Positions 1,266-64,000 of a DNA stretch of 64,000 bases are shown here, piece by piece (position 1 is the first letter of the stretch; each line of letters opens with the position of its first letter). This DNA comes from a virus: IMG/VR virus record IMGVR_UViG_3300023274_000046; one strand, written 5' to 3'. Made by a program: the position numbers and the translations under genes. Under the pieces are notes generated by a model. That model did no database searches. It was not told where the DNA came from and worked only from the letters and a program-made list of their open reading frames with translations.

Positions 1266-22567
<21,302 letters not shown>

Positions 22568-46046: not shown

Positions 46047-47360
46047 ATGCCATACAACTCATTAATATTATTAATTTTATCTAATTCAATTACATCAAGA
46101 CGAGACAAATCAATCCTGTTCACAGCAACAGTTATATTTATAATTATCCTTTCAGTATTTATAGCCTATAATAATTTACATATTTTATTTTTAGTATTAT
46201 CTTTGGAAAATGGGTTAGGATTAACCCATATTGCTGCTACAATGAACTCGTTCCCTGTTAGGGATTTAAACACATTATTAACTTTACTTCTAAAAAGGGT
46301 TATAGTTGCTGTAAGGCAAGGGTACGATAAGGGTAATGGGATAAGCTATTCATTAAAAGTTAAAGCAAAATCTGATGAAAAGATCTCTACTATATTATCA
46401 AGTATGCCTTCAACATTCAACTATAACACTAAAAGAAAGTTTAATACTTTATCTAAAGTAAACTCTATTAAAAAATTAGACCCCTTCTTTATTACAGGTT
46501 TAGCGGATGCAGAGTCTAGTTTTATGATATTTATTCGTAAAAATACTAAGATTAAAGTTGGTTGAGTAGTGGAGGCTAGATTTGCAATTAGTTTTCATAA
46601 AAAAGACTTACCACTTTTAGAGTTAATTCAGTATACTTTTGACGGAGTGGGTTCTATAGTACGTCATTCAAAAGATAGTTATAGTTTATGCGTTAGCTCT
46701 CCAAAGGATTTAATTCATACTATTATCCCACATTTTGACAAGTACCCTTTAATTACAAAAAAAAGATCTGATTATGAGCTATTTAAACGTGTAGTAGAAC
46801 TTATGAACCAGAAAGCCCATTTAACCGTTGAGGGTTTACAACAAATTATAAGTATTAAAGCTGTTCTAAATAAAGGTTTATCAGATGAATTAAACCTTTC
46901 ATTTCCTGACGTTAAATTTACTACACGTCCTCTATTTCCAGTGAGTAAAATACAAAATAGTAACTGAGTATCCGGATTTGTCGAAGGTGAAGGTAACTTT
47001 ATGATTATGCTTAAAAAAAATCCATCTCATAAATCTGGTATACAGGTTGCATTGAGATTTAAAGTGACTCAACATAACCGTGACGTTGAGTTTATTAAAA
47101 GTTTTGTAGATTTTTTTGGTTGTGGTAATTGCTATATTGGTGGAGATTGCGTAGATTTCGTTGTTACAAAGTTTTCTGATATTACTGATATAATCTTACC
47201 CTTTTTTAGTAAATACCCTTTACATGGCTGTAAAAGATTAGATTTTCTTGATTTCTTACGAGTTGTTGAGATTATGCAAAGTAAAGCTCATATAACTGGG
47301 GAGGGACTAGAACTAATTCGTACAATAAAATCCGGAATGAACAGAGGAAGATGTGTTTAA
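46047..47360 (+). CDS. Free-standing LAGLIDADG endonuclease with a Nad2-like N-terminus (437 aa)
   Basis: LSNSITSRRDKSILF...AYNNLHILFL, then ITGLADAES and VSGFVEGEG; continuous across TGA. Confidence 0.85.
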
Positions 47361-47953: not shown

Positions 47954-50900
47954 ATGTTGTATATTGTGAATGAAATGACATTTAGTGGATATAATGTATA
48001 TAGTTTAAACTTATTATATATTATTGCTATATTATTAGGTATACTAGTTATTATTAGCAAAAACCCTATTGATATATTATTTGGGGTAAACTATCAAATT
48101 CCGGGGACACCCTAAAGCTTATGATACCAAGCTGTAGTTGAAAGACTATTAGTGGATGAATTAATCACTCATGTATGGTAAAAAGTCATAAGATGATCCT
48201 TTATATTAGCAAAGGAGAAATAGGCAATCGCGGATCTAAGTCAGTAACATAATAATTACTGTAAAAGAGCAACGATTAGATGGTAGTTAGTAGTGGTATT
48301 TAAGTAAATAATATTACTACTTAAGGTATAATCTACAAATTAAAAAAAAATATGTGATTGTAAATAATTTCAATCTAAACTTACTTACATTTTATTCTGA
48401 TGTAGACTCAGGAGGTGTCTCCTACTCTAATCATAAATATATTGTATTACAATCCCGTGTACCCCGACCTCACCAATTAAATGATCTCTTGATAAGGTCA
48501 TATCATACTAAATCTTTAAGTAGCTTACGTACACCCTTAGAGTTAAATCCTTGATTTATAACTGGATTTACTGATGGGGAAGGTTCATTCTCATTAAGTG
48601 TTAGAGATATAGATAAGTATACTAAAAAAGGAAAAGTACTCTATGTATTTTCAATAATATTACATAAGAAAGACGAGGGTATATTAAGAAGTATCTCATC
48701 CGCAGTTATTACGCTATTGCTTGGTTATTACCGTAAATTTAAAGATAGATGTAGTTTTGATTTAGAATGAGCTTTACATAACCCACCTAAACCATACGCA
48801 TTTACTCACTTACCTTTACAGAGTAAACTTCAACATCCACATGCGGGTTATTTTTGATGAATGATGCACAGACGTAATGTGCATGCACACGAATCTAACG
48901 CACCTACTGAGGAACATATTCAGAGGTACTATCAGAAATACATTGAACCATTGACCCCCGAACAACAAAATAATTTTGATAGAAAATTAATACGAATAGA
49001 TGATAAATTTTTGGAGAAAATACGAGGTAATGGAATGCAGCAGTGTCCGAATCATGGTATCAAAGATGTTCAAGGTAGTAATTGTAAAGGAACATATATT
49101 TTTGACCAGTATGAGTTAAATCCTCTTATGAATATTATGCATAATGACGAAATTCAAAGCATACTCTTTGTAGTAAACGGAGAGTGGGTTATTTGCTTAA
49201 GATACCTAATTATGTATTTTATGATTAAAAATGGATATAATTTTAAAACTATATGATCATTTATAAGTTCGAATATTATTTATGTTATAAAAATTCTTGC
49301 GAATAACGTTAGTAGTATAATTTTTCTCTATTTAGCTATTATATCCAGTATGGTATTTTTATTAATTAGTGGTAACTATTTAGATGCTAGCTTTGTTAGT
49401 TATGACGTACTTAAAGCTTGAGAACTTTACTTCCAAAATAGTGCTAGTCCACCTAATAATATTTTTTCAGGTTATAGAAATTATTTACAATATTCAACTA
49501 ATTATCCTCTAATACTATCTTCCAACCCCGGGGGGGTTAGAAGAAATAGATCTTTTTCTACCTCTATTCTCCCCTATAACTCCGTTACAAGGGGAAGCTT
49601 ATTAAATCTTAAAGAAATACCTCGTAGGAAGTTTTATTGCTCAACTTCATTAAATAGGGATTTACTTAGTGATGAAGATTTTTACGAATGGTTACGTGGT
49701 TTGATAGATGGTGAAGGTTGTTTTTATATAAGAAAAAACTTGATCCGAGAGAATTCTCCATTCACATTTTTATTCTTAATTAATTTACACATTGATGATA
49801 AGGCTGCGCTTGACTATATTCAAATGAGGTTGAATATCGGTAAGGTCGATGTTATCAAAGATGGAAAAATGAGTAGTTTATCAGTTGTGAAAAAAACAGA
49901 GATAAAAGTACTAATTGACATTTTAAGTAAAGTTCCTTTGAATACAACTAAAAGGTTAAATTTCGAAGACTGAAAGCAAGCTTATGAGCTTTATTTCGGT
50001 GTAGATAAAATAAGTGATAGAGGAAAAACTATCCTGGAAAAAATAGATGAGATTAAGAAAGGTATGAACACAAGAAGACAATATGAAACACATAAATTTG
50101 AGTTTCATATCACGAAATATTGATTGTTAGGGTTTATAGAAGGAGAAGGTTCATTCTCTATATCGAAAGAACGACTTCAACAGATATTTTTCCTGGGGCA
50201 AGTGTCTAGCGAGAGACCTTTATTAGAAAAAATCACAGAATATTTAGAATATTATAGTGAGGGTTCTATCTCTTATTCCACTAACAATAAGTCCATATTC
50301 GCTATCTATGATAAAACTGAGGATGCTTTACGTAACCGTAAGCCCTTTTCTAGTTTACATTGCGCTAATCAAGAATATTTACTTAAGGTGCTAGTGCCGC
50401 TATTAGATTCATTAACCTGACAAACCAAAAAATTTATGGATTTTAAGGATTGATCAGCAATATTGGAGATAAAAGCTGCCGGTCTTCATCTTAGTTCCCA
50501 AGGTAAAAAAGTGATCCAAAAAGTAATTGCGCAGATGAACAATTACCGTTTGTCAACTAATCCTGATAAAACAAACATAGATAGAAACTTATTGTATTCT
50601 GAAATTGCAGATTTATTAGATCAACCTTCTATTGAAAGAGTAGCCAAAAGACCGGTTAATCTAATAAATGAAAAAGGTGAATTGTTTAAGTCTTTTCCAT
50701 CAATATACGGCTGTGCCAAATTTCTGGGTATAAGTAAATATAAGATTAATACAGCTATAAAACTAAATAAAGCGCTGATTTATGACGAAAAAGTATATTT
50801 TGTGCGTGAGGACTAGGAGTAGGTAAAATATATACACATGGAAAACAAGGAGTACAATTCCGCGTTGAATCTAAAAAAGAGTTATGTATTTTAATAGAAC

Positions 50901-53900
50901 ATTTTGATAAATATCCGTTAATAACCAAGAAAGCTAAAGACTTCTTATGTTTTAAAAAAGCAATTTTCTTAATAAAAAACAAAGAACACTTAACAAAACA
51001 AGGTATGCTAAAGTTAGTATCTCTAAAAGCTTTAATGGGTAAAGGTCTTACTAATGAATTAAAAACTGCCTTTCCTGATCTTATTACAGCAAATGAACTA
51101 GGGATATCTGATTTAACTTTATCTCCAGATTTAATAATAGATCCTTGTTGATTAGCAGGGTTTATTTCAGCGGAAGGTTGTTTTATTATAGGTATTTATA
51201 AATCTACATCTGTAAAAACAGGATACCAAGTACAGTTAAAATTTGTACTAAGTCAACACATAAGAGATAAAGAGTTATTTGAATATTTTGTAAAACATTT
51301 AGGGTATGGTTATACAGCTGTAGATAGAGAAGGAATTTATTTCATAGTTACTAAATTTTCAGATTTAAAAGATAAACTCTTACCTCTATTACATTTACAA
51401 CATCCCGTAGTAGGTTATAAATATTTAGATTATTTGTATTTTATGGAGGCTGTAGAAATGATTCAAAAAAAACTCCATTTAACAGAAGAGGGTTTAAATA
51501 AACTACGTGAGATACAAGTTTTAATGAACAGCGGAAGAAAAAACACACCTGAACAAGATACCGATTCAGTTACAACAGATTAAACTATGTGTTTGTGTGT
51601 GCGGGTAATACAAGAGGGGTAATTAGCAGCTTAGCTTTAAAATAGGTATGTAAGTTTTTAAAAGTAGGCTTTTTAATTTGTGATTGTTTCGGTCTTATTC
51701 TTAATAGGTTTATTTTTATGCATATCTTGTTATTTAATTCTAACAGGGTTAAACTTTATAGGATTATCTTACTTGCTTGTGTACATTGGGGCGGTAGTAA
51801 TAAGTATGAATAAATTTGCCGCGTTGGTTCGAATCCAACTTTACAAGGTCCTTTTAGATAAGTGATATAACTACGTTTTATCTTACATTAATAAAAAATA
51901 TAGAGATTTTAGTTCTCTTACTCTTAAAAAAAAACTTCTTAAAACAAAGACTATCCCTGGCACGGTTGGTCTTATTTGGCTGCAAGGGAGAACAATGGGC
52001 AACTATAGACATCTAGGTAATATAGGCAACAATAGACATATAGGAACAAAACCCATATTATGAGCTAGTTGTTACTCTACTATGACCTATAAAGATTCGC
52101 TAAATAACACAGAATTTTACGAATGATTGTGTGGGTTCGTAGACGGTGAAGGTTACTTTAGAATTAAAAAAGATAGTAGACGAGACAGATTTCCATATGT
52201 TTTTGAGTTTACGATACTTTTACATCTCTTTTATTATTTCTTAATTATATTTTGTCCAAAGCGTCGAATCAATTATTTTTTTATTAAAAAAAAATCCATT
52301 CATTTTTATACTAAAATAAATACTTCATTAAAAGTTCATTCTAGTCCCTTTAAATATGTGGGGTCTAGTCCACGCCTTGGGATCCAAGCTAAGGTAAATT
52401 ATTCCTTGTTAAATAGGATGAAAACTAAACAAATGAATTCAGGAATTTGTTATTATTCAACTAATAATAATCTTATTGTAAATGTGGAAGCAGAATTTAA
52501 AAAAGATGAATCAAAATTAAATCCGCATTGAGTATCTGGATTTGTAGATGCAGAGGGTAGTTTTATGGTTAGGGTATATAAACAAGCAGGGAAAACAGGA
52601 TGAGGTGTCACACCAAGTTTTTCTATCCATTTACATAAAATAGATATTGATATATTATATGCATTACAAAATTATTTTGGAGTAGGTAATGTATATTTAA
52701 ATAAAAATGGAAAATCAGCTAGTTATATAGTTAGTAATTTAAAAGATATAAATAATGTTATTATACCTCATTTTAAAAATTATCCTTTACAAAGCTGTAA
52801 ATGCATTGATTTACAATTATGATCTTTGTGTATTGAAATTGTAGTTAATAAAGAACATTTAACTATAAAAGGGTTAAATAAGATAGTTGAACTTAAATCT
52901 ATTTTAAATAAAGGTTTATCTGAAATATTAAGAGTAAATTTCCCTGGTATTAATTTAATAGAAAGGCCAATATTTCAAGTGAACAAAGGACCACTTAATC
53001 CTTATTGAGTGAGCGGTTTCACCGAGGGTGATGGTTCTTTTTATGTCACTATTTTTTTTTTTCAAAAAAAAATTGAAACTAACTATGTAAGAATGTTTTA
53101 TAGTATTGCTTTAAATAATAGAGAAACTCCTTTAATTCGAAAAATACAAGAGTACTTTAAAGGAATAGGTTCAATAGTAGAAAGTATTGATAATAATTAT
53201 AACACGGTGAAATATAAAGTAGTCTCGATTAAAGATCTTAATGAATTTATTATACCTCAATTTGATACTTATAAATTTTTTGGAAATAAACATCTTAATT
53301 ATTTAATTTGAAAAGAAATATTATTGTTGGTTAACTCTAAAGCTCATTTAACTGCTGAAGGTTTAAAGAAAATTAGATCTCTTCAGTCTAAACTTAATAA
53401 ATGAGAAATTTAGATTAATCCTTTGCTAGTAGTTCTAATAAAAAAAGCCCATGAGCCTTGCCTTGTCCCCCATAAGGCTCTCTCTCTGTGAGAGAGAGAG
53501 GTGACGATAAACCTGTTCTTGATTATATTCAAACTAGTTTAAATTTAGGTAATGTGATATGTAATGGTAAATTTTGTAGATTTAGTGTTTATAGAAAAAC
53601 CGATATAAAAGAGATAATTAGTGTTTTTAGTAAATATCCTTTGAATTCATCTAAAAGACTTAATTTTGAAGATTGAAAAAAAGCTTTTGAACTTTATAAT
53701 GATGAAAATATAAATGGTAATAGAGAAAATATTCTTTCTATTGTAGAGAAATTAAGGGAAGGTATGAATAAAGGAAGATATTATGAAACTTTTAAAGTGG
53801 ATGATGTAAAAATTACTAAATATTGATTATTAGGGTTTATAGAAGGAGAGGGCTCATTTAATTTTCAAAAAAAAGGGTTTGCAGTTACTTTTACTTTAGG

Positions 53901-56900
53901 ACAGGTATCTCGAGATAAACCTTTATTAGAAAAAATTGTTGAGTTTTTAAAATCTCATAGTGGAAATTTATATACTAAAGAGTCTTTTTTAACTATATAT
54001 GATAAAGCTAAAGAGAATAATATAAATCAAAATCCTTATTCAGAAATCCGAAGTTCTAGTTTATATTCTTTACGTAAAGTGCTTGTACCTTTATTAAGCG
54101 ATTTAAATTGACGTTCAAAAAAATATAAAGATTTTAAAGATTGAACTTTAGTTTTAGATTTAAAAGCTGCAGGTCTTCATACTGCATCTGAGGGTAAAGA
54201 ACTTATTTTAAAGATATACTCTCAAATGAATAATAACCGTCTATCCACTAAAAAATCAGATGTGAATGTAGATGTAGATAAATTACATTATGAAATTAAA
54301 CTTTTGTTAGCTAAATCTACTGACCACACAAGTAAAGCCAATTCTGTTAATCTTCATTTAGAAAACGGAGAACTGGTAATGTCTTTCCCATCAATATATA
54401 GTTGTGCCAAATTTTTAGGTGTTAATAAGTATAGAGTTTCTCAAAGTTTAACTTTGAATAAACCGTTTAATGTAGATAATAAGGTTTACTATGTGCGTAA
54501 CGCATAAATTTACAATATAAGTTACAATAACTTATCTGGTACACAATTAAGAAGGTTGAGCTAAGTTGTTTATTTATATGTTACCATAGGTGCGGTAAAA
54601 AAACGTATGGTTAGATCATTTAGATCTAATTTTGCAGCGTGGGTTAGAATCCCACTCTACAAGGTACTTTTAATTATAAACAATTTTTTTTTTAAAATAA
54701 TGTTGTACAAACTTCCTTCTTTATTTAAGTTTAAAAGGGAAGCACCGTCAGCTTTCGCTTTATTTTTTTCGACGTTATTTCGAATATTCGCAATAAATAG
54801 AAATAAATTAGCGCAAGAGGAATCATATTTTTCTCAAAAGTCGTCCTGCAGCAACCACGACGAAGAATTTATTAAATGATTTGTAGGGTTCTCAGATGCA
54901 GAGTCTAATTTCACTATAGTCTTATATAAAGATAAAACTGGTAAAATTATATCTTTTACTTTCAGATTTTTGATAGAGTTACACGTTGATGACATAGATG
55001 CTTTAAAATTAATAAAAAATAAATTAAATCTAGGAAATGATATAGTAGTGTATGGTAATAGTTGTAAATTTACGGTAACACATCGAAAAGATATTTATAA
55101 ATTAATAGCTATATTTGATAAATATAACCTAAATACTACTAAGTACCTTGATTATTTAGATTTTAAGAAAGCTTTTAATTTATATCTGGGAAGAGATAAG
55201 ACAATTAAAGAGAAACAAAATTTAATAGATCAAATACTAGAATTAAAAAATAGAATGAACAAGTCTCGTGTTAATTTTAGTTTACCTGCAGATCATCAAA
55301 TAGTAATATCTGGTCCTTGATTACTAGGGTTTATTGAGGGAGAAGGTTCATTTTATTTAGATAGAACTGAATTTAGACCTGTTTTTTCAATTATACAAAC
55401 TGAAATACAGCTACCTGTAATGGAAAAAATTAAATAATTTTTAGAGAGTAATTTAGGGTTTGATAAGTATTCTATGTTTAAATTAAAATGTTCATCCGCT
55501 ATATCTATTAAAAGAGGTAAAGCTCTAAATAATAGTAAATCGTTAGCAGTAGTTGTAATTAATAATACAAATATCTTAAATAATTATTTAATACCCTATT
55601 TAGAAAAAAAAAATATGCCGTTTATTACTAAAAAAGGTAAAGATTTTTATGATTTTAAAATTATATGCACTGCTGTGTATAATGGAACTTATAGAACAGA
55701 GGAAATAAAACTGTTAATCTTAAAATTGTCGTATTCTATGAATAACTTTAGATTAAGTACAAACTCAGATTTAAAAAAAGTTCCTAGTTTATTTAAGGAA
55801 AGTTTAGATAAAATCATAAAAGCAAAACCAACGATTAGACATCTTGATGATGGTCGTCAATTAGATATTGTCACTGGAAAAGCGGTGAATACACGTTGAA
55901 CTAATTGTATTTATGAAATAATTAAAGATTCAGGAGAAATGTTCTGAGCGTCTACTTTAAACGAGGCGGCTGAAATTTTAGGTGTAGATTTTAGAACAGT
56001 AAGAAGGCATTTAGAACAGGAAGACTTATACTCAAATGGATATTACGTCGAAATAAATGGCCATAAGGTTAGAAGAATACCAGTATTTTATCCTTAAGAA
56101 TCAACTCTTTTTTTTTGTGTGGGCAAAAGACTATTTGGTCCTGGAATTATAGTTAAGTCCTTAATAGGGAATAAATTTATTAAACTAGGAAGGTAGTTCT
56201 AGCAACACGGTAATGTAATGAGTACGCCGGAAAAAAAATCCATTGTAGGATGGTTATCCTGAACGCTGTTTTGGGATACGACGATGAGCCTTTAGTTACT
56301 TATGTAGCAAGGAAAAAAAAAATTAAAAAGAATTAAGAGCATAGGAACTGAAAGAAGGTTCAACTGTACAGTTCTATACTTGTAGAAAAAATTAGGTGAA
56401 TACGGTTAATAATATCTTAATTAAAGACCGTCGGCAGATGAAAATGTCGCAACAGACTGGATCACCGGGGCTAGGTTGCAATACCTGTTCTAATGTACAG
56501 TCGGATTCTAATACGAGTGTGAAATCGTAAGGAGGAAAGACAATACAGTAAGCTACACACAGTTGTATAATCATTCATACTATGATAGTTACTCCTAGAT
56601 ATGATAGTGTTAACTAGACGCTAGCTTAATCTTAATTAGAATTGATCTATATTATTTTTATTTATATTAATGCTAATAAATGTTAGGATATCGGAATTAT
56701 TAATTGATAGTATAAATAGTATACCTTTAGCCATATTATTAGGTAGTTTTTTTAATTATTTTGTTAATAATGTTTTACCTTACATGGTGATTACTAATAA
56801 TTTACTTTATCATTTTAGCATAAAAAAAAAATTAGCCAATGTAACATCTGTATCATGAGATGGATATTTAGCAGAAACTTCTCATATAACAAGTATAGGA

Positions 56901-57005
56901 AATATCATCTATGGAAATTATTCTATATGATTAATACTTACATCCATTATATTATTATTAGCCATGACTGGGTGTATTATAATTACTTTAAAAGAAAAAA
57001 AGTAA
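47954..57005 (+). CDS. nad6: NADH dehydrogenase subunit 6. Exons 47954-48067, 51683-51795, 56645-57005 (588 nt)
   Basis: VIISKNP-IVSVLFLIGLF...LLVYIGAV-SILFLFILMLINV...NYSIWLILTSIILLLAMTGCIII. Confidence 0.93.
48068..51682 (+). mobile_element. Group I intron 1 of nad6 (IC2-like); resident LAGLIDADG split by a ~2.1 kb insertion
   Basis: Core at ~48085-48330; LAGLIDADG halves at ~48500-48695 (LHKKDEGILRSI) and ~50812-51582 (LGVGKIY). Confidence 0.88.
48312..50816 (+). CDS. Chimeric ORF (~835 codons; first ATG at 48861): LAGLIDADG N-half, Cox1-C-terminus-like, cargo, TM, Cox2-N-terminus-like, complete second LAGLIDADG
   Basis: Read by hand in code 4; no TAA/TAG until 50814. Confidence 0.78.
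51796..56644 (+). mobile_element. Group I intron 2 of nad6 (ID-like core at the 3' end) with three LAGLIDADG units
   Basis: Core gcaacagactggatca / aatgtacagtcgg at ~56450-56505. Unit A (51796-~52227 plus ~53500-54507) is split by unit B (~52227-53413). Unit C (54597-56097) has an internal TAA at 55435. Confidence 0.85.
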
Positions 57006-58082
57006 ATAATTCTGAATTTAATGCGCGTAAAGGGCTAGTTAACCCCAGCTCTAAATATCTTTTCAAGCCTAAATTTTATATATTAAGTAGTCGGTCTTTT
57101 AGTACCGTTAATAGTTCTCTTAAAACAGATGTTTGTACTCAAAATAATACTATTGCATTGAACCTTTTACCGGGTTGGGTTACAGGATTTTCAGATGGTG
57201 AATGTTCTTTTTCTGTTAATATTGTTAAAAACAGTCAATATAAAACAGGTTGAAGTATAATACCTATTTTCTGTATTGAATTGCATAAAAGAGATTTAGA
57301 GACTCTTTTAAGAATACAGATGTTTTTTGGGGGTATAGGAAGGATTAATCACCTTAAAGAAAAAGGTCATGTCGTCTATTCAATAACTTCTGTTAAAGAC
57401 TTACATAACGTGATCATACCTCATTTTACGAAGTACCCTCTTTTAACTATAAAAAGACTTACTTTTATACTTTTTAAAGATATAATTGAATTACTTGTAA
57501 ACAAAGAACATTTGAATTATAACGGCTTACTAAAAATTATGGCTATTAGAACTCAAATAAATAAAGGTGTTTCTGATGAACTACTAAGCTCTTTTAATCA
57601 ATTTTCTATGCAAATTAGTGGTAAACCTATTGTTACTATTCCAAAACCATTATTGGACCCGTTAAGTTTAAAACATTTAACTAAGGATTGATTAGTAGGT
57701 TTTACTGATGCGTAAGGTTGCTTTTTTGTTCACTATCGTGTTAATAGTAATAAAACAGGTCATTCAACAGGATTGGGCTTTACTATTACTCAGCATTCTA
57801 GAGATTCTTTACTTTTTCAGCTTATAAAATAATTTTTCGGTGTTGGTAATACTATAACGGAAGCAAATAAAGAGGTAATTAGATATAGAACGGATAATTT
57901 TTCTAATATTTATGAAAATATTATACCTTTTTATAGAAATGCACTACAAAGTAGCAAAAATTTGAATTATTTAGATTTTTGTGAAGCTTCTGAAATAATC
58001 CAAAGTAAATCTCATTTAACTGAGCAAGGCCTGGAAAGAATTAAATCTATTAAACTCCGTATGAATTCTAAACGGGTTTAGT
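57006..58082 (+). pseudogene. Free-standing LAGLIDADG directly after nad6, with in-frame stops
   Basis: WVTGFSDGEC and WLVGFTDA*G motifs. Confidence 0.8.
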
Positions 58083-58379
58083 ATAAAGTATGAAATTAAA
58101 TCGAAAACGATATCATTATTAGCAGTAAAAAAGGATTATTGGTTTAGGATAAGGTAATACAAAATAACCCCGAGGTTCTATTAAAGATTCCCGTGTTAAA
58201 TTTTGTATAAGCCAAACTGTAATAGTCGGTCATTTTTAAATAAGTTCATTATAAAATATTTTTTGGTTTTCCCCTTGTTCTATTCTTACTGTCGAATAGG
58301 TAGTATTGTAATCACTCTAAAAGAAAAAAAGTAATTACTTTTAACGAATCTTCGTGTCAAATTAGTGGTGATATTCCTT

Positions 58380-58775
58380 TAAGAGTTAAAGCAAAATCTG
58401 ACGAAAAAACGTTTTCTGGTGGCAGTATATCTCAGACATACAACTATAATTCTAAAAGAAAGTTTAGCACTTCAGCTACATTTAAAGTACCTAAAGGATT
58501 AGATCCCTGATTTATCACTGGAATCGTGGACGCTGAGTCTACATTTACAATAGCTATCCGTCAACATTCTAAATGTAAAATGGGTTGATCTGTTGAGCCC
58601 AGCTTTGCTATTGGTTTAAATAAAAAAGACTTACCTTTACTGGTGTCAATTAAATCTACTTTTGGGGGAATAGGTTCTATAATGCGCCATTCAGAAGATT
58701 GCTCTGTTTGACGTGTTAGCTCTCTAAAAGATTTAATTAACACAGTCATTCCACATTTTGACAAGTTTACTTTTG
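58380..58775 (+). pseudogene. Truncated LAGLIDADG paralogous to 46047-47360
   Basis: Shared gttaaagcaaaatctga...aaaagaaagttta; FITGIVDAES motif; ends at IPHFDK. Confidence 0.75.
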
Positions 58776-59033
58776 TAATATGTAAAAATAAGTATTAAGT
58801 CATATATATTAAATATTTAAATCCAATTTTGCAATGTATAAAATTAAAAATTTATTTTGTATATATAACTTAATCTGTCTCATTGCGAAGGATTTACCAT
58901 TAATCAACCTCTCATTGCGTTGGAGAGATCCCTTGTTTATATGAATAAGGAATAAAGGAGAAGATACCTCGTGGAGGGCAACGGAGTAACGCTCAGACAT
59001 GCCCATAAGCTAGAGATTAAAGCCTAAAAAAAA

Positions 59034-59106
59034 AAGAAATTAGCTCAATTGGTAGAGCGTCCGTTTTACACACGGCAGGTTAAGTGTTCAAATCACTTAT
59101 TTCTTA
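59034..59106 (+). tRNA. trnV: tRNA-Val(TAC)
   Basis: Acceptor aagaaat/atttctt; loop tttacac. Confidence 0.92.
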
Positions 59107-59134
59107 ATACTTATGAATAATAAGTATATATTTA

Positions 59135-59206
59135 GAGATCTTAGCTTAATGGTAAAGCGTATGACTTTTAATCATTATCATAAGGGTTCAAGTCCCTTAG
59201 ATCTTA
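59135..59206 (+). tRNA. trnK: tRNA-Lys(TTT)
   Basis: Acceptor gagatct/agatctt; loop cttttaa. Confidence 0.92.
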
Positions 59207-59297
59207 TAAAAAAATTATAAACGGCTATAGGAGAAACTACTTTTAATAGGGGCTCCGTATTATTGGTAGATAGATGTGCAACTCATCTACGGGGTAT

Positions 59298-59504
59298 ATG
59301 ACTAAACTATTACTATTATCATTGAAATTATCTAATGAAATACTATTAAGACGAGACAAATCCATTTTGAAGACAATAATAACAATATCTAACGAATTAT
59401 CTAATTCAACATTAATAAGATGAGAAAAATCCCTTTGGAAGACAAGAATAAATATACCTAAAAAATTATCTTTTTTAGATATTATTCCTGAAGACAAAAA
59501 ATAG
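59298..59504 (+). pseudogene. nad2 N-terminal fragment with an internally duplicated LSN...RRDKS motif
   Basis: MTKLLLLSLKLSNEILLRRDKSIL...ELSNSTLIRWEKSL. Confidence 0.65.
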
Positions 59505-59710
59505 AATAAAACTAAAAAAATAAAACAAAATAAAAAAACAAATCTAAAGGGCTAGTGTAGTTTGAGATTAAGTTAGGGGTAGCTAGCTTATTATGGGGGG
59601 TGCAAATACCCTGGTCCTTAAGAATAAAAAAAAAATAAATCCTGAAAAGTAGATACCTAATTAGATTTATCTTTTTAGTTTATAGATGTGCAACTCATCT
59701 ACAGGGTATC

Positions 59711-61351
59711 ATGAAAATAATCAAACTAACACTAATATCATTATTATCTAATTCAATAACACTAAGACGAGACAAATCCATTTTTTGTAATAGGATAACT
59801 ATTTCGCCCGCCGTCGGGGAGATTTTAGTTATTTCTATTTTTCTTTTAGCCAACTATTACATAGCTTTTATTTCGGATCTTTACACAGATAAGGGGCCCC
59901 CCTTACCAGCATGTATTACTAATGATTTTCAAAGGCAATTTTATAGAATAACAGATTGTTATTTATTTTCTACTTTTGTTCCTTTTTCAGAACAGTGATG
60001 TAAAGAGAAGAAAGTTGAACTTTATAAAAAAGGGTTTCCAGCTGTTTTCGAGGACATGTCACAAATTAAAAAATATGATTATTTTGCTATTACTAATTTT
60101 ACGATAAACCCTTTATCTTATTATTCTCTTAAAAACATCCCTGGGATTTACATGATTACCAACAAGATTACTAAAAAGATATATATTGGAATGTCTACTA
60201 ATCTTAAAGATAGATTTTATAATTATCTGGATGAAAAGAGATTAAACAGAGATAGATCTTCCAGAATTAATAAAGCGTTACTTAAATTTGGTTTCGATAA
60301 GTTTTCTATTTCTATTTTAGAGTTCACTCATATTGAACAAGGGACCACGGTTAAGATTTCTTATTTAAGAGAAGACTTTTTCATTAAAGTTTTTAAACCT
60401 CAATATAATATTAAAAGATCTTCCTATAATTTTAATCTTGAAATAAAGGGAAATAATAAAGTTATTATGAAATTAGATATACCTCTAAAAATTAAAAATT
60501 TACTTGATAAGTGCTTAGATATTATTCATGAGCTATTCTCTGTAGCATATAAAAAATATGCTTACAATTTATTTAACTATCTATTAAATAGACTAAAAGA
60601 ATATAAACTATTCTACCTAATTGTTATCTTTTTTTATTCTATTATCCAAAATATCGAAAAAATACTATTATCTAATAATGGGTTATCTTTATTATTTATT
60701 ATTGGTTTATTTGTAGGTGATCAGTTTATATATTATAAAACCCTGTTGTTTTTATATTATATAACTTTTTTTAAAAATTATTTACAAGATAATAAGGAAA
60801 TATTAAAGAGTTACCCTAAAATTCAAGAATTTTTAATAAATACTTTTGAATTGTTACAGAAAGTTCTATTAGGAATAATACTAGGTATTGTAACTAATAC
60901 ACTAGTATCTTATTTAAAAAAGATTTGGGGATATATTCTTAAAATGTTTAGACAAAACAGGAATAATACTGAGAATAATAATTCTATACAAGAAGATAAC
61001 GGAAATAATAAGAATCCTAATCCAGACAATTCAGATCCTTTACTAAATAAAGAGGAAATAAGAAAGAAAAAAAACGTAGAAAGGAATAGAAGATATAAAA
61101 CAAAAAAAAAAATGAATCAAACCCCTGAGGAGAGGGAAGCTGACTCTAAAAAAAACGCTGAAAAGAATAGAATATATAGAGAAAAAAAAAAAATGAATGA
61201 AACTACTCAGGACAAAGAAAAAAAAACACGGGGGTATAGGGAAAGAAAGAGAAAACAAAGAGACATTATAAAACAGGTCATTAAAGATCATGAAGAAAGG
61301 CTAGCTAGAGAAAGGCTAGCTAGAGAAAGAGATAACGGAAATAATAACTAA
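59711..61351 (+). CDS. Chimeric ORF (546 aa): Nad2-like N-terminus, GIY-YIG module, membrane domain, Asn-rich and charged tail
   Basis: LLSNSITLRRDKSIF; PGIYMITNKITKKIYIGMS; YILKMFRQNRNN; the 59711 and 60056 track ORFs are in frame across TGA. Confidence 0.8.
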
Positions 61352-61619
61352 TCCATACTATTTAGATACTTTTCCAATTCATGAGGAGAAGCAAGCTAGG
61401 TAAAAAAAAAACCAAAAAAAAACCCCAAAAAATTTTGTTGTTGGCTCAAGGCGAGGGATAGCCAAGGAAAGAGGCGAATTCGTGAATACTATGAGTGAGT
61501 GTGCTGAATCTTGAAATCGACCGGTCGGGATATTATTCTAATGAGGTATTTAATAAGCTAGCTCTCGCACTTTCTCTACCAAACGTGATCAGGGCATAAT
61601 TCCATCAATCAAACTTATT

Positions 61620-62590
61620 CTAAAGCTGGACTAGGCAGTCCCATCTTCGGTGCGGACAGTCTACTATATTAAATCACCATACATCTAGTCTAATTCCTGG
61701 TAATTTTGCTAACAGAACCCAAGTTATCTTAGCTTTCCGTCCTTCTAAGGAATATAAGGAGGGATCATGAATCTGCTCTTTATAGGTATATACTTTCGCA
61801 TCTGCTTCTAAAGTTCTTATCTCCATATCCTTCTCTCCCTGTCGTTGTTTCGTTCCGTCCCCTAATACCTTGATCTTTTCTAATTCTAGAGGGTCAAAGA
61901 TGGGGGATGTATTGATCAGGTTTCGTATATAATTACCAAACGGCGGATATATGGAATTTCTTTTAAATCATTCCAGTATACTGTTACTAGAAATCAGATT
62001 GAAACAGGCTTTCAAATCAAATTCGTATAGTGACTTCCCAGCCTTAACCTTCGATATGATTATCTTCCAAGCATCTTCATAGCTTCGTCTAGGACGAAAC
62101 CCAGTCTGATAGTCTCCTATGAGTGGTTCGATAACCAAATATAGTATATCATTTATCATCTTTAGTATGATTCTTCATTCCCGATTGGGCACTCCTAAGG
62201 GACGGATTCCCGTACTTTCTTCTCAGGTCGCGCCGGTAGGTTTCGGAATATATATGCGATTGAATATGGCGTTATGGTCTAGACTCCGGCGTATCCTATC
62301 TACCCCTTTCAGTAAATTATACACTTGGGGTTGGTCTCAGGTGACGTATCAGTTATGATAAGCTCTGGAGAAACTATATAGTACGTAACATTGTGATCGC
62401 TGGAAAAGTACCAATCATAATTTTATGGCTTTATTGTATTCTTTCCTCTCTATCATTCTCAATAGCCGTCCTCGTTGTTTATGCAAATATCTATTACAGC
62501 CAGGAATCCTAATTATGGACCTTTTATCGTAGTTCGGAATTAATGGTAGTCTTCAATTACTTGAGATTTTCCACTCCTTTGACTCGAAAA
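61620..62590 (-). pseudogene. N-terminal half of a second retroplasmid-like reverse transcriptase
   Basis: RIYIPK, IRPLGVP, QTGFRPRRS, YEFDLKACFN; open for ~320 codons in code 4; later motifs degenerate. Confidence 0.8.
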
Positions 62591-63341
62591 AAAAACCAAA
62601 AAAAACCCCAAAAAAAAACCAAGCGGCTATAGGATGGAATCAAAAAAAAGATATTTAGGTTGAGGCAGTTAACAAGGTTTATATTTATTATTAAGTTAGA
62701 TAAAGTAAAGAAGTTAGGCTGATTTTAAAATCTTAATTTATTATTATGTTTGATGAAAAGTAATAAGTTAGGCAGATTATAAGAAAATTTTAATTTATAC
62801 ACTTAGAATTATTGATAATATTGTAGCAATCTAGATAGATATGTTGCTGAACGATTTTAGAATGTAGTATTATTTTGAAATAAATACTTTTAATTACAAT
62901 GATTTGTTTAACAAAAATTTCATTTATTATGATGTTGAAAAGATATATGGATCCATATACAATTAAGTTTTTAGTTAAAATTTGTATGAATTTGGAGAAG
63001 ACTGGAATGGGCCCCAGTTGAAAGGTTAAACGTAGATGAATTAAAGTAGATCTTGGATAATGTTGTTAGGATGTGTTGAGTTTATAAGTCTGATTAAGGA
63101 GAAGTGTTAAATGTATTTATAGTCTCTCTAATATCCTAAGGTAATGTGATAGACCGCGATTTGTCGATAGTTTAATAAACAAGTAGCAAATAAGACGAGT
63201 ATAGCAACCGGGTAAAACTGTAGTCTGACCGAAAGAGGCAGAGTAGAAGTCAAAAGGGGGTTTGCTATGGAACCCTCAGGACCGCCACCACGCCCGTGAA
63301 GTCGGGGGCATATCTTTCCAAAAATTCTTACTAGAGACGAG

Positions 63342-64000
63342 TTGGTGACTGCGATCGCTAGAAGGTATGAAACAGCATCCCCTCCAGGGACCGGGATAAA
63401 CTTATACCCATGGCAATCGATGGGCCTCGCGTTAGATGAACTTAAATTAAATATGAAGAAATCCTTAAAACTAACTTTCGGAAGCTTGGCCATGACTGAT
63501 AAATATGGAAATAATGCTAACTTCTCTACATCAACCAATAAATTTATGGTTAAAGGAGCGCTTAGAAATTTTTATACTCCTCATTCTTTTTCACTTGTTA
63601 AAGTTAGATATTTTTATACTAATGGAGGTAATTACTTCGATAGTAAACTGATTATAAATTCTACTCCTGAACATGTTGTTCCCGTTAAATTTTATTCGGA
63701 TGCTTTAAAACTAAAAGCGGATATTCTTAAAGATAATAGGAAAAAAGCAGGTATATACAGATGAACTCACAAGTCTTCCGGTAAAACCTATGTAGGTTCT
63801 ACGCTAAATTTAACTCTTAGATTTTTAGGTTATTTTTCCTTAGCTTTTTTAAAAAAAGAACTAAGAATTGGGAACAGCATAATTTATAGATCAATGCTAA
63901 AATATGGTCCTTCAGCATTCAGTTTGGAAATTCTAGAGTATTGTGACCCTTTGAGTTTAATTTCTAGAGAACAATACTATCTTGATCTCTTAAAGCCTGA
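63342..64000 (+). CDS. GIY-YIG homing endonuclease (partial, runs off the window)
   Basis: AGIYRWTHKSSGKTYVGS...SLEILEYC...SREQYYLD. Confidence 0.85.

Follow-up and report, generated by a model that had tools for sequence, protein, structure and literature searches.

The 64,000-nucleotide stretch recorded in IMG/VR as IMGVR_UViG_3300023274_000046, analysed here at its full length and called the window, contains a 546-codon open reading frame (ORF) in which a nuclease, a piece of a respiratory subunit and a hydrophobic domain are joined, raising the question of how such a protein came about and what it may be for. The window is a segment of a fungal mitochondrial genome, with about 30% G+C, genetic code 4 and numerous intron-borne endonuclease genes; its Nad2 relatives place it in the Pleosporales, and leaf-litter metagenome runs contain its DNA. 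The ORF (P0001; 59711..61351, + strand, stop included) is best explained by recombination between two mitochondrial genes unrelated to each other. The resulting chimera, confined to one lineage, would be young, with a disabled homing nuclease providing the start from which a membrane cassette borrows its translation; to this account we assign a probability of about 0.62.

An initial annotation of this DNA had described a four-part gene in a single 546-residue frame of code 4. The frame is as described, with TGA read as tryptophan only once, at codon 96, and its parts follow one another on the + strand. A Nad2-derived leader (aa 1-60; 59711..59890), identified by a match to 7zm7 and by Nad2 relatives, comprises the Nad2 N-terminus and first hydrophobic helix. 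The GIY-YIG catalytic core (aa 141-236; 60131..60418), recognised by Pfam and by alignment to I-TevI, retains its catalytic residues. The hydrophobic helical cassette module (aa 270-415; 60518..60955), found by profile match, ends in the motif GYILKM and is followed by an Asn-rich linker, predicted to be disordered (aa 416-445; 60956..61045; predicted local distance difference test score, pLDDT, 31-48, together with composition and the family alignment), and by a Lys/Arg/Glu-rich tail (aa 446-546; 61046..61348), for which the model predicts three long helices and which is homologous to the tail of the stand-alone cassette protein P0008. Composition of the last two parts also agrees with the earlier description, with Asn at 12 of the 32 positions of aa 414-445, 38 K+R and 20 D+E among the 101 tail residues, and ERLAR present twice. 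Although all four parts are present, module, linker and tail were inherited as one unit, as P0008 (369 aa) matches aa 269-518 of the ORF with all three together. Judged by homology, the gene is built of two evolutionary units rather than four parts, unit A being the leader and GIY-YIG (aa 1-269) and unit B the cassette (aa 270-546).

Modelling of aa 262-546 gave an all-helical structure (pLDDT 74.5), with helices predicted at aa 263-295, 299-319, 322-332, 338-360 and 369-414, a disordered linker and three long tail helices (pLDDT 80-94), and a Foldseek search with the module and tail model gave no PDB match better than E 0.99. The tail is repetitive at the DNA level, containing an 81-bp tandem repeat (61067-61131 and 61148-61212, copies 83% identical), an A12 run (61182-61193) and a duplicated 15-bp repeat encoding ERLAR (61295-61324).

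The boundary between the two units is mapped to the nucleotide, which bears out the earlier view of a gene assembled from mobile parts. DNA similarity of the GIY type, to locus L008, spans 59711-60520, and cassette-type similarity, to locus L001 (83% identity to L001 1529-2084, 562 bp), starts at 60515. The 6-bp overlap, TTAGAT, codes for Leu-Asp, and because this microhomology is in the same phase in both parents, the frames agree across the joint, which reads ...KCLD / IIHELF... in the protein and is spanned by the tryptic peptide CLDIIHELFSVAYK. DNA and protein breakpoints place the joint together with the right copy of a 12-mer, TTAGATATTATT (60515..60526, +), whose left copy lies at 59475..59486 (+); by exact word search of both strands these are its only two copies in 64 kb, against 0.12 expected. 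Bracketed by the 12-mers is an inserted 1.03-kb segment (59487..60514, +) holding the 5' flank, the stem-loop, the leader and the first 268 codons of a leader plus GIY-YIG gene, and its flank aligns with the 5' flank of the related gene P0005 in L005.

The interrupted cassette gene is still visible to the left of this segment as a 76-codon stump (59274..59504, +), with an in-register ATG at 59298. The stump carries a degenerate Nad2 leader, its motif present twice, continues without a change of frame into the opening codons of the cassette (...SFLDII), and ends with a further five codons and a stop. Its leader (59270-59368) shows 79% identity to 59682-59784 and about 77% to L001 319-456, while 59458-59487 matches the start of P0008 (L001 1512-1541) at 93% identity. 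We considered a reciprocal single crossover at TTAGAT but did not adopt it, given six extra bases at the left joint; the likeness of the next 5-8 bases to the nuclease continuation may be due to chance. Synteny between L001 and the window was not demonstrable on either side.

The nuclease half keeps its catalytic module, as the initial annotation had stated. PF01541 matches aa 145-233 (Pfam, E 1.6e-8, 35.1 bits against a cut-off of 22.6), and residues Y147, Y158, R168, E221 and N233 stand in register with the catalytic Tyr, Tyr, Arg, Glu and Asn of I-TevI (alignment to 1mk0/1ln0, residues 3-87). Its C-terminal part is lost. About 35 GIY-YIG relatives with 41-67% identity align to aa ~86-270, most of them ending exactly at aa 270, and past ...KCLD the full-length relatives continue into a conserved C-terminal domain that they have in common, about 105 aa long; neither the ORF nor any other part of the 64-kb window contains it. 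This domain is predicted confidently (pLDDT 93.7, predicted template modelling score 0.85) as a helix, a four-stranded sheet and helices; according to the model, the ORF retains only the first helix and the break falls just after it. The missing NUMOD tail noted earlier requires a partial correction: Pfam detects no NUMOD family in the ORF even at E<=1 and a conserved C-terminal domain is indeed gone, but the closest relatives have no Pfam-recognisable NUMOD and carry this other domain instead. Aligned from P0005 (236-354) and 22 other relatives (alignment A5), it has an alpha/beta fold and belongs to no Pfam family, and it found no solved-structure match with Foldseek (best E 0.13) or with VIA-align over 48,161 chains (best Z 4.1).

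I-TevI is a two-domain GIY-YIG homing enzyme in which cleavage depends on the DNA-binding half. By analogy, the lost domain is presumably an undescribed target-recognition domain, and the ORF does not have the C-terminal target-recognition domain of a two-domain homing endonuclease. While the catalytic domain resembles I-TevI-type enzymes in its alignment and catalytic residues, the linker, zinc finger, helix-turn-helix DNA-binding half and NUMOD are absent; the parent clade has a different alpha/beta C-terminal domain without a solved counterpart, and the ORF has lost even that. As a separate observation, copies of a 1382-aa ORF without a Pfam family lie to either side of the GIY-YIG relative P0006 (L003/L004, a 20.4-kb European Nucleotide Archive (ENA) contig).

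The cassette half belongs to a small family. Aligned with aa 469-603 of the 710-aa cox1-exon/LAGLIDADG ORF at 14332-16464 (-), aa 288-422 show 53% identity over 135 gap-free positions (BLASTP E 2e-27), confirming that the two genes have this putative membrane domain in common, as first annotated. This second copy (14656..15060, -; BLASTP and module profile) forms the C-terminal end of that cox1-exon plus double LAGLIDADG ORF; the family profile finds exactly two copies in the window, with no match at 16530-17240 (E<=10). The ORF matches all of positions 1-164 of the 164-position module profile with 258.8 bits (E 5e-79), a score that is not independent, the profile having been built from four sequences with P0001 among them; profile-independent support comes from the pairwise identity of aa 288-415 to P0008 (74%) and P0002 (53%). 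Only 28 representatives match the profile among 1.84e9 proteins, and across lineages the module family shows 21-74% identity with invariant motifs.

Members of the family stand alone (P0008, P0053), behind cox1 and LAGLIDADG (P0051, P0052, P0002, P0038), behind rps3/VAR1 (P0055) and behind a Nad2 leader (P0061, P0068), the last two being leader plus module genes without a nuclease. Module, GYILKM end and Asn- or Pro-Asn-rich linker are found family-wide, with a tail that is either charged-helical or beta-rich (alignment A3); the tail of the ORF is homologous to those of P0008 and P0071, both nuclease-free. The cox1-intron copy shares the module family, the GYILKM end and the Asn linker, but it stands behind an intact LAGLIDADG and has a beta-rich tail, whereas the copy in the ORF appears to be free-standing, lies behind a truncated GIY-YIG and has the charged helical tail of the P0008/P0071 type. 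The cassette family appears to be undescribed, and hydropathy and the all-helical model predict its module to be a hydrophobic membrane protein of roughly four helices. Further combinations were observed in P0068 (587 aa), with a leader-like start, module, charged tail and two weak NUMOD-like repeats (E 0.003, 0.047), and in P0055 (684 aa), with rps3/VAR1, module and beta-rich tail. In L001, a 379-codon ORF (359-1498) with 82 Nad2-like residues, followed by a less AT-biased body without a recognisable family, stops one base before the ATG of the stand-alone gene P0008, another leader capture beside a cassette.

The start of the ORF was taken from nad2. Residues 6-33 match residues 4-32 of Chaetomium ND2 (7zm7 chain 2, E 0.038); the longer homologous leader of L001 matches ND2 residues 1-82 (E 2.6e-7) and, used as a query, retrieves 327 proteins, nearly all of them PF00361 Nad2 proteins of 570-620 aa from Pleosporales. 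The leader is 41% identical to P0080 over 41 aa (BLASTP) and has a 6-aa insertion relative to its sister leaders. About 55 leader codons are the only nad2-derived part, and Pfam finds no match to PF00361 (Proton_antipo_M core) in the ORF. The same leader is carried by the GIY-YIG genes P0005 and the L008 ORF, both full length, and by the 112-aa fragment P0077; the leader and nuclease therefore formed a unit before the fusion. When aa 1-62 were searched against longer proteins, only P0004 and the fragment P0077 matched. Leader-headed ORFs of at least three types are found in the window, where the third leader copy (46047..46230, +) is in frame with an intact LAGLIDADG ORF (to 47360) and is followed by trnY and trnN, not by the rest of nad2.

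A stem-loop accompanies these starts. Copy A (59271..59297, +) lies just before the stump's ATG at 59298 and copy B (59683..59709, +) ends 1 nt before the ATG of the ORF, the exact 27-nt motif occurring twice in the window against 0.00 expected. Its conserved 20 nt form a 6-bp stem with the invariant 7-nt loop UGCAACU, placed 1 to about 14 nt 5' of the ATG, at window 59271-59290 and 59683-59702, L001 356-375, L005 ~575-595 and ~709-729, L008 ~88-108 and L003 ~4975-4995. In front of Nad2 leaders it is present at the two copies near the ORF and in L001, L005 and L008, and it also precedes the leaderless GIY-YIG relative P0006. Compensatory changes affect three of the six stem pairs between lineages; only this covariation favours the stem-loops, their stability being indistinguishable from that of shuffled sequences (z -0.24 to -1.27, and +0.57 for L001). 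In the true nad2 loci of relatives (L014 and L015 included), used in place of the organism's own nad2, trnM lies 0-3 nt from the ATG, and the stem-loop of the captured leaders is in register with the T arm of that trnM. The stem-loop may be what remains of a tRNA-like processing signal, carried along together with the Nad2 start. The same Nad2 N-terminus also heads other bodies (LAGLIDADG, nad3-type PF00507 or no family) in P0093, P0113, P0152, P0162-P0164, P0175, P0177 and P0183, and capture of the Nad2 leader, as far as these sequences indicate, may be widespread.

The fusion is restricted to one lineage. Across a set of 5.8 billion proteins and metagenome contigs of the Joint Genome Institute (JGI), full-length or joint-spanning matches occur only in sequences with 99-100% protein identity, the ORF being intact in L002 (99% identical, P0004) and, as far as the contigs extend, in L006 and L007. 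For the fusion as a whole, the conservation and ratio of nonsynonymous to synonymous substitution rates (dN/dS, omega) proposed as a check by the initial annotation concern near-identical haplotypes, and these vary as if neutral: among the window, L002, L006 and L007 the ORF has 8 variable sites, of which 7 are nonsynonymous and 1 is synonymous, a pattern compatible with neutrality (P 0.51) but not with omega <= 0.25 (P 0.037). The tail holds 5 of the 8 sites and aa 100-270 none. Against more distant relatives, omega was 0.25 for the nuclease part (aa 100-270 vs P0005, p 3e-9), with a dN/dS of 0.16 for the GIY-YIG core against P0005, and 0.34 for the leader vs P0005 (p 0.003). The module gave 0.49 vs P0008 (p 0.03) and 0.62 vs P0002 (p 0.07), and the tail about 1.1 vs P0008 (not significant). 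There is no sign so far of accelerated decay of the nuclease, nor of selection on the fused product.

The ORF lies between trnV and trnK on its 5' side (59034-59206) and a reverse-transcriptase remnant on the opposite strand on its 3' side (61620-62486). Rfam matches within 56500-64000 were trnV and trnK alone, with no intron RNA matched, although fungal introns are often missed by these models; as no intron RNA is seen around it, the ORF appears to be free-standing. RNA-library contigs (assembled contigs from four runs, 99-100% identity) cover parts of the ORF, with pieces at 59743-59893, 60153-60343, 60965-61396 and 61144-61303, at low depth and with none across the joint. They equally cover the flanks, including the tRNAs, the stump and the downstream reverse-transcriptase remnant; because the intergenic flanks are covered to the same extent, and since DNA carry-over and genome-wide transcription are not distinguishable in such contigs, they say nothing specific about expression of the ORF. 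One of these contigs has A13 at the A12 run 61182-61193, reflecting either slippage or a real frameshift. Outside this locus, the L002 strain has about 2.5 kb (L002 3667-6204), including a 797-aa reverse-transcriptase/maturase ORF, in place of about 8.6 kb of nad6 introns at 48071-56645 of the window, a large presence/absence polymorphism between haplotypes otherwise 99.5% identical.

The two parents, the breakpoints, the stump, the loss of the domain and the confinement of the fusion to one lineage are thus established, and a sequence of events can be proposed from them. The first parent was a free-standing GIY-YIG homing-endonuclease gene that had earlier captured the tRNA-like stem-loop and the first ~55 codons of nad2. 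The second was a cassette gene, consisting of the hydrophobic module ending in GYILKM, the Asn-rich linker and a variable tail, here with a Nad2 leader of its own. A 1.03-kb piece of the first parent (5' flank, stem-loop, leader and codons 1-268) would have landed within the first codons of the second, leaving the original cassette start behind as the 76-codon stump. In this event the nuclease would have lost its conserved C-terminal domain, presumably serving target recognition, and its frame would have come to read on into the cassette at the in-phase 6-bp microhomology. One membrane protein would then be translated from the captured start. The cassette half, weakly constrained and always in frame behind another start, may persist by borrowing translation, and the nuclease half would be a disabled passenger, unable to home. 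The fungus probably gains nothing from the fusion.

Several observations weigh against this account. The 546-codon frame is unbroken in every haplotype seen, all GIY-YIG catalytic residues are retained, aa 100-270 contain no polymorphic site (P about 0.05 if sites are uniform), and in the GIY tree the branch of the ORF is no longer than that of full-length P0005; with catalytic residues kept, no polymorphism in this region and no lengthened branch, the nuclease half shows no visible decay. A set of eight substitutions is too small for neutrality to be told from weak selection. DNA binding by the lost domain is argued by analogy with I-TevI-type enzymes, with no PDB match to support it. The left joint does not mirror the right one cleanly, which leaves two candidate recombination paths, insertion with a 12-bp duplication or a template switch while a break was being repaired.

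The strongest competing explanation is that the whole ORF, cassette included, is a functionless by-product of endonuclease-driven rearrangement and remains open only because it is recent. The 7:1 ratio of nonsynonymous to synonymous changes agrees with neutrality, and the tail has an omega of about 1.1, contains five of the eight variable positions and shows slippage in its repeats and an A12 run; confinement to one lineage and Pleosporales mitogenomes with partial nad2 duplications fused to unknown sequence (PMC5626475) also fit. We nevertheless consider this explanation unlikely, as the module family is conserved across lineages with 21-74% identity, invariant motifs and an omega of 0.49 (p 0.03), the module recurs in frame behind other starts, and the leader and stem-loop are conserved with compensatory changes.

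A functional protein would be expected if the GIY-YIG, freed of its sequence-reading domain, were held at the inner membrane by the module with the basic tail on mitochondrial DNA, acting as a nucleoid-associated or non-specific nuclease, close to the membrane-tethered nuclease or nucleoid-associated protein of the initial annotation. The intact catalytic residues, the lack of polymorphism in aa 100-270 and the strongly basic tail (38 K+R in 101 aa) with its predicted long helices are compatible with such a role, and P0068, joining the module with weak NUMOD-like matches, indicates that cassette-nuclease mixtures recur. Isolated GIY-YIG catalytic domains, as established for I-TevI, bind DNA poorly. 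Moreover, no orthologue of the fusion was found beyond near-identical haplotypes, the break as modelled cuts a compact folded domain and not a linker, the same tail occurs on the nuclease-free P0008 and P0071, and the tail evolves neutrally. Together with the 7:1 pattern, these results leave the annotated function unsupported, and we regard a tethered nuclease as quite improbable.

A further step in the same direction would make the ORF a domesticated inner-membrane GIY-YIG nuclease, kept at the nucleoid by its basic coiled tail and engaged in mitochondrial DNA turnover or inheritance, with the relic-tRNA stem-loop and Nad2 start forming a portable expression module that selfish ORFs in Pleosporales have captured repeatedly; this proposal is speculative and carries still less weight. 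Finally, a joint created by a chimeric contig is extremely improbable, for although the data are of metagenome type and two JGI contigs end in the tail near the repeats and the A12 run (at 61131 and 61178, within the tail repeats), four separately assembled sequences (the window, the ENA contig L002 and the JGI contigs L006 and L007) cross the joint identically, and 14 DNA runs each contain half or more of the words sampled from this stretch.

The reading of the ORF as a recombinant of two genes can be set beside known systems. Free-standing endonuclease genes that capture host-gene N-termini, with partial gene duplications around them, have been described (PMC7487136). The likeness extends to the intergenic endonuclease gene with a captured host-gene N-terminus and to recombination that yields partial gene copies; the present endonuclease differs in having no C-terminal domain and reading on into an unrelated membrane-protein gene, and the captured piece here includes a tRNA-like stem-loop common to at least three ORF types in the window. 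In Stemphylium lycopersici, also of the Pleosporales, a partial nad2 duplication is fused to unknown sequence, the copy being ~560-590 nt long with 99.6% identity and a stop at codon 17 (PMC5626475). There, as here, the 5' part of nad2 is copied and joined to sequence without a known homologue, whereas in the window only ~55 diverged codons are present and these head long open frames.

The construction also recalls the chimeric ORFs of plant mitochondria, of the cytoplasmic male sterility type, in which microhomology recombination joins the 5' piece of a respiratory gene to an unknown hydrophobic sequence and gives a new membrane protein with borrowed expression signals. The present ORF shares the respiratory-gene 5' piece and its joining by microhomology to an unknown hydrophobic sequence, but it belongs to another kingdom, has no known phenotype, and has a homing endonuclease as one of its parents. 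A literature search found no description of a truncated GIY-YIG reading into a cassette, of the cassette family, or of the unit formed by stem-loop and leader.

The locus is a nucleotide-resolved record of a new long open frame made from two selfish or orphan genes, in which both parents can still be recognised, along with the 6-bp microhomology, the 12-mer on either side of the inserted segment and the stump that was left. It links the decay of a homing endonuclease by domain loss with a cassette apparently living off the starts of other genes and with a portable 5' end, three subjects that are as a rule considered separately. Should this 5' unit truly bring about processing and translation, fungi would have a counterpart to the gene starts that chimeric ORFs of plant mitochondria borrow.

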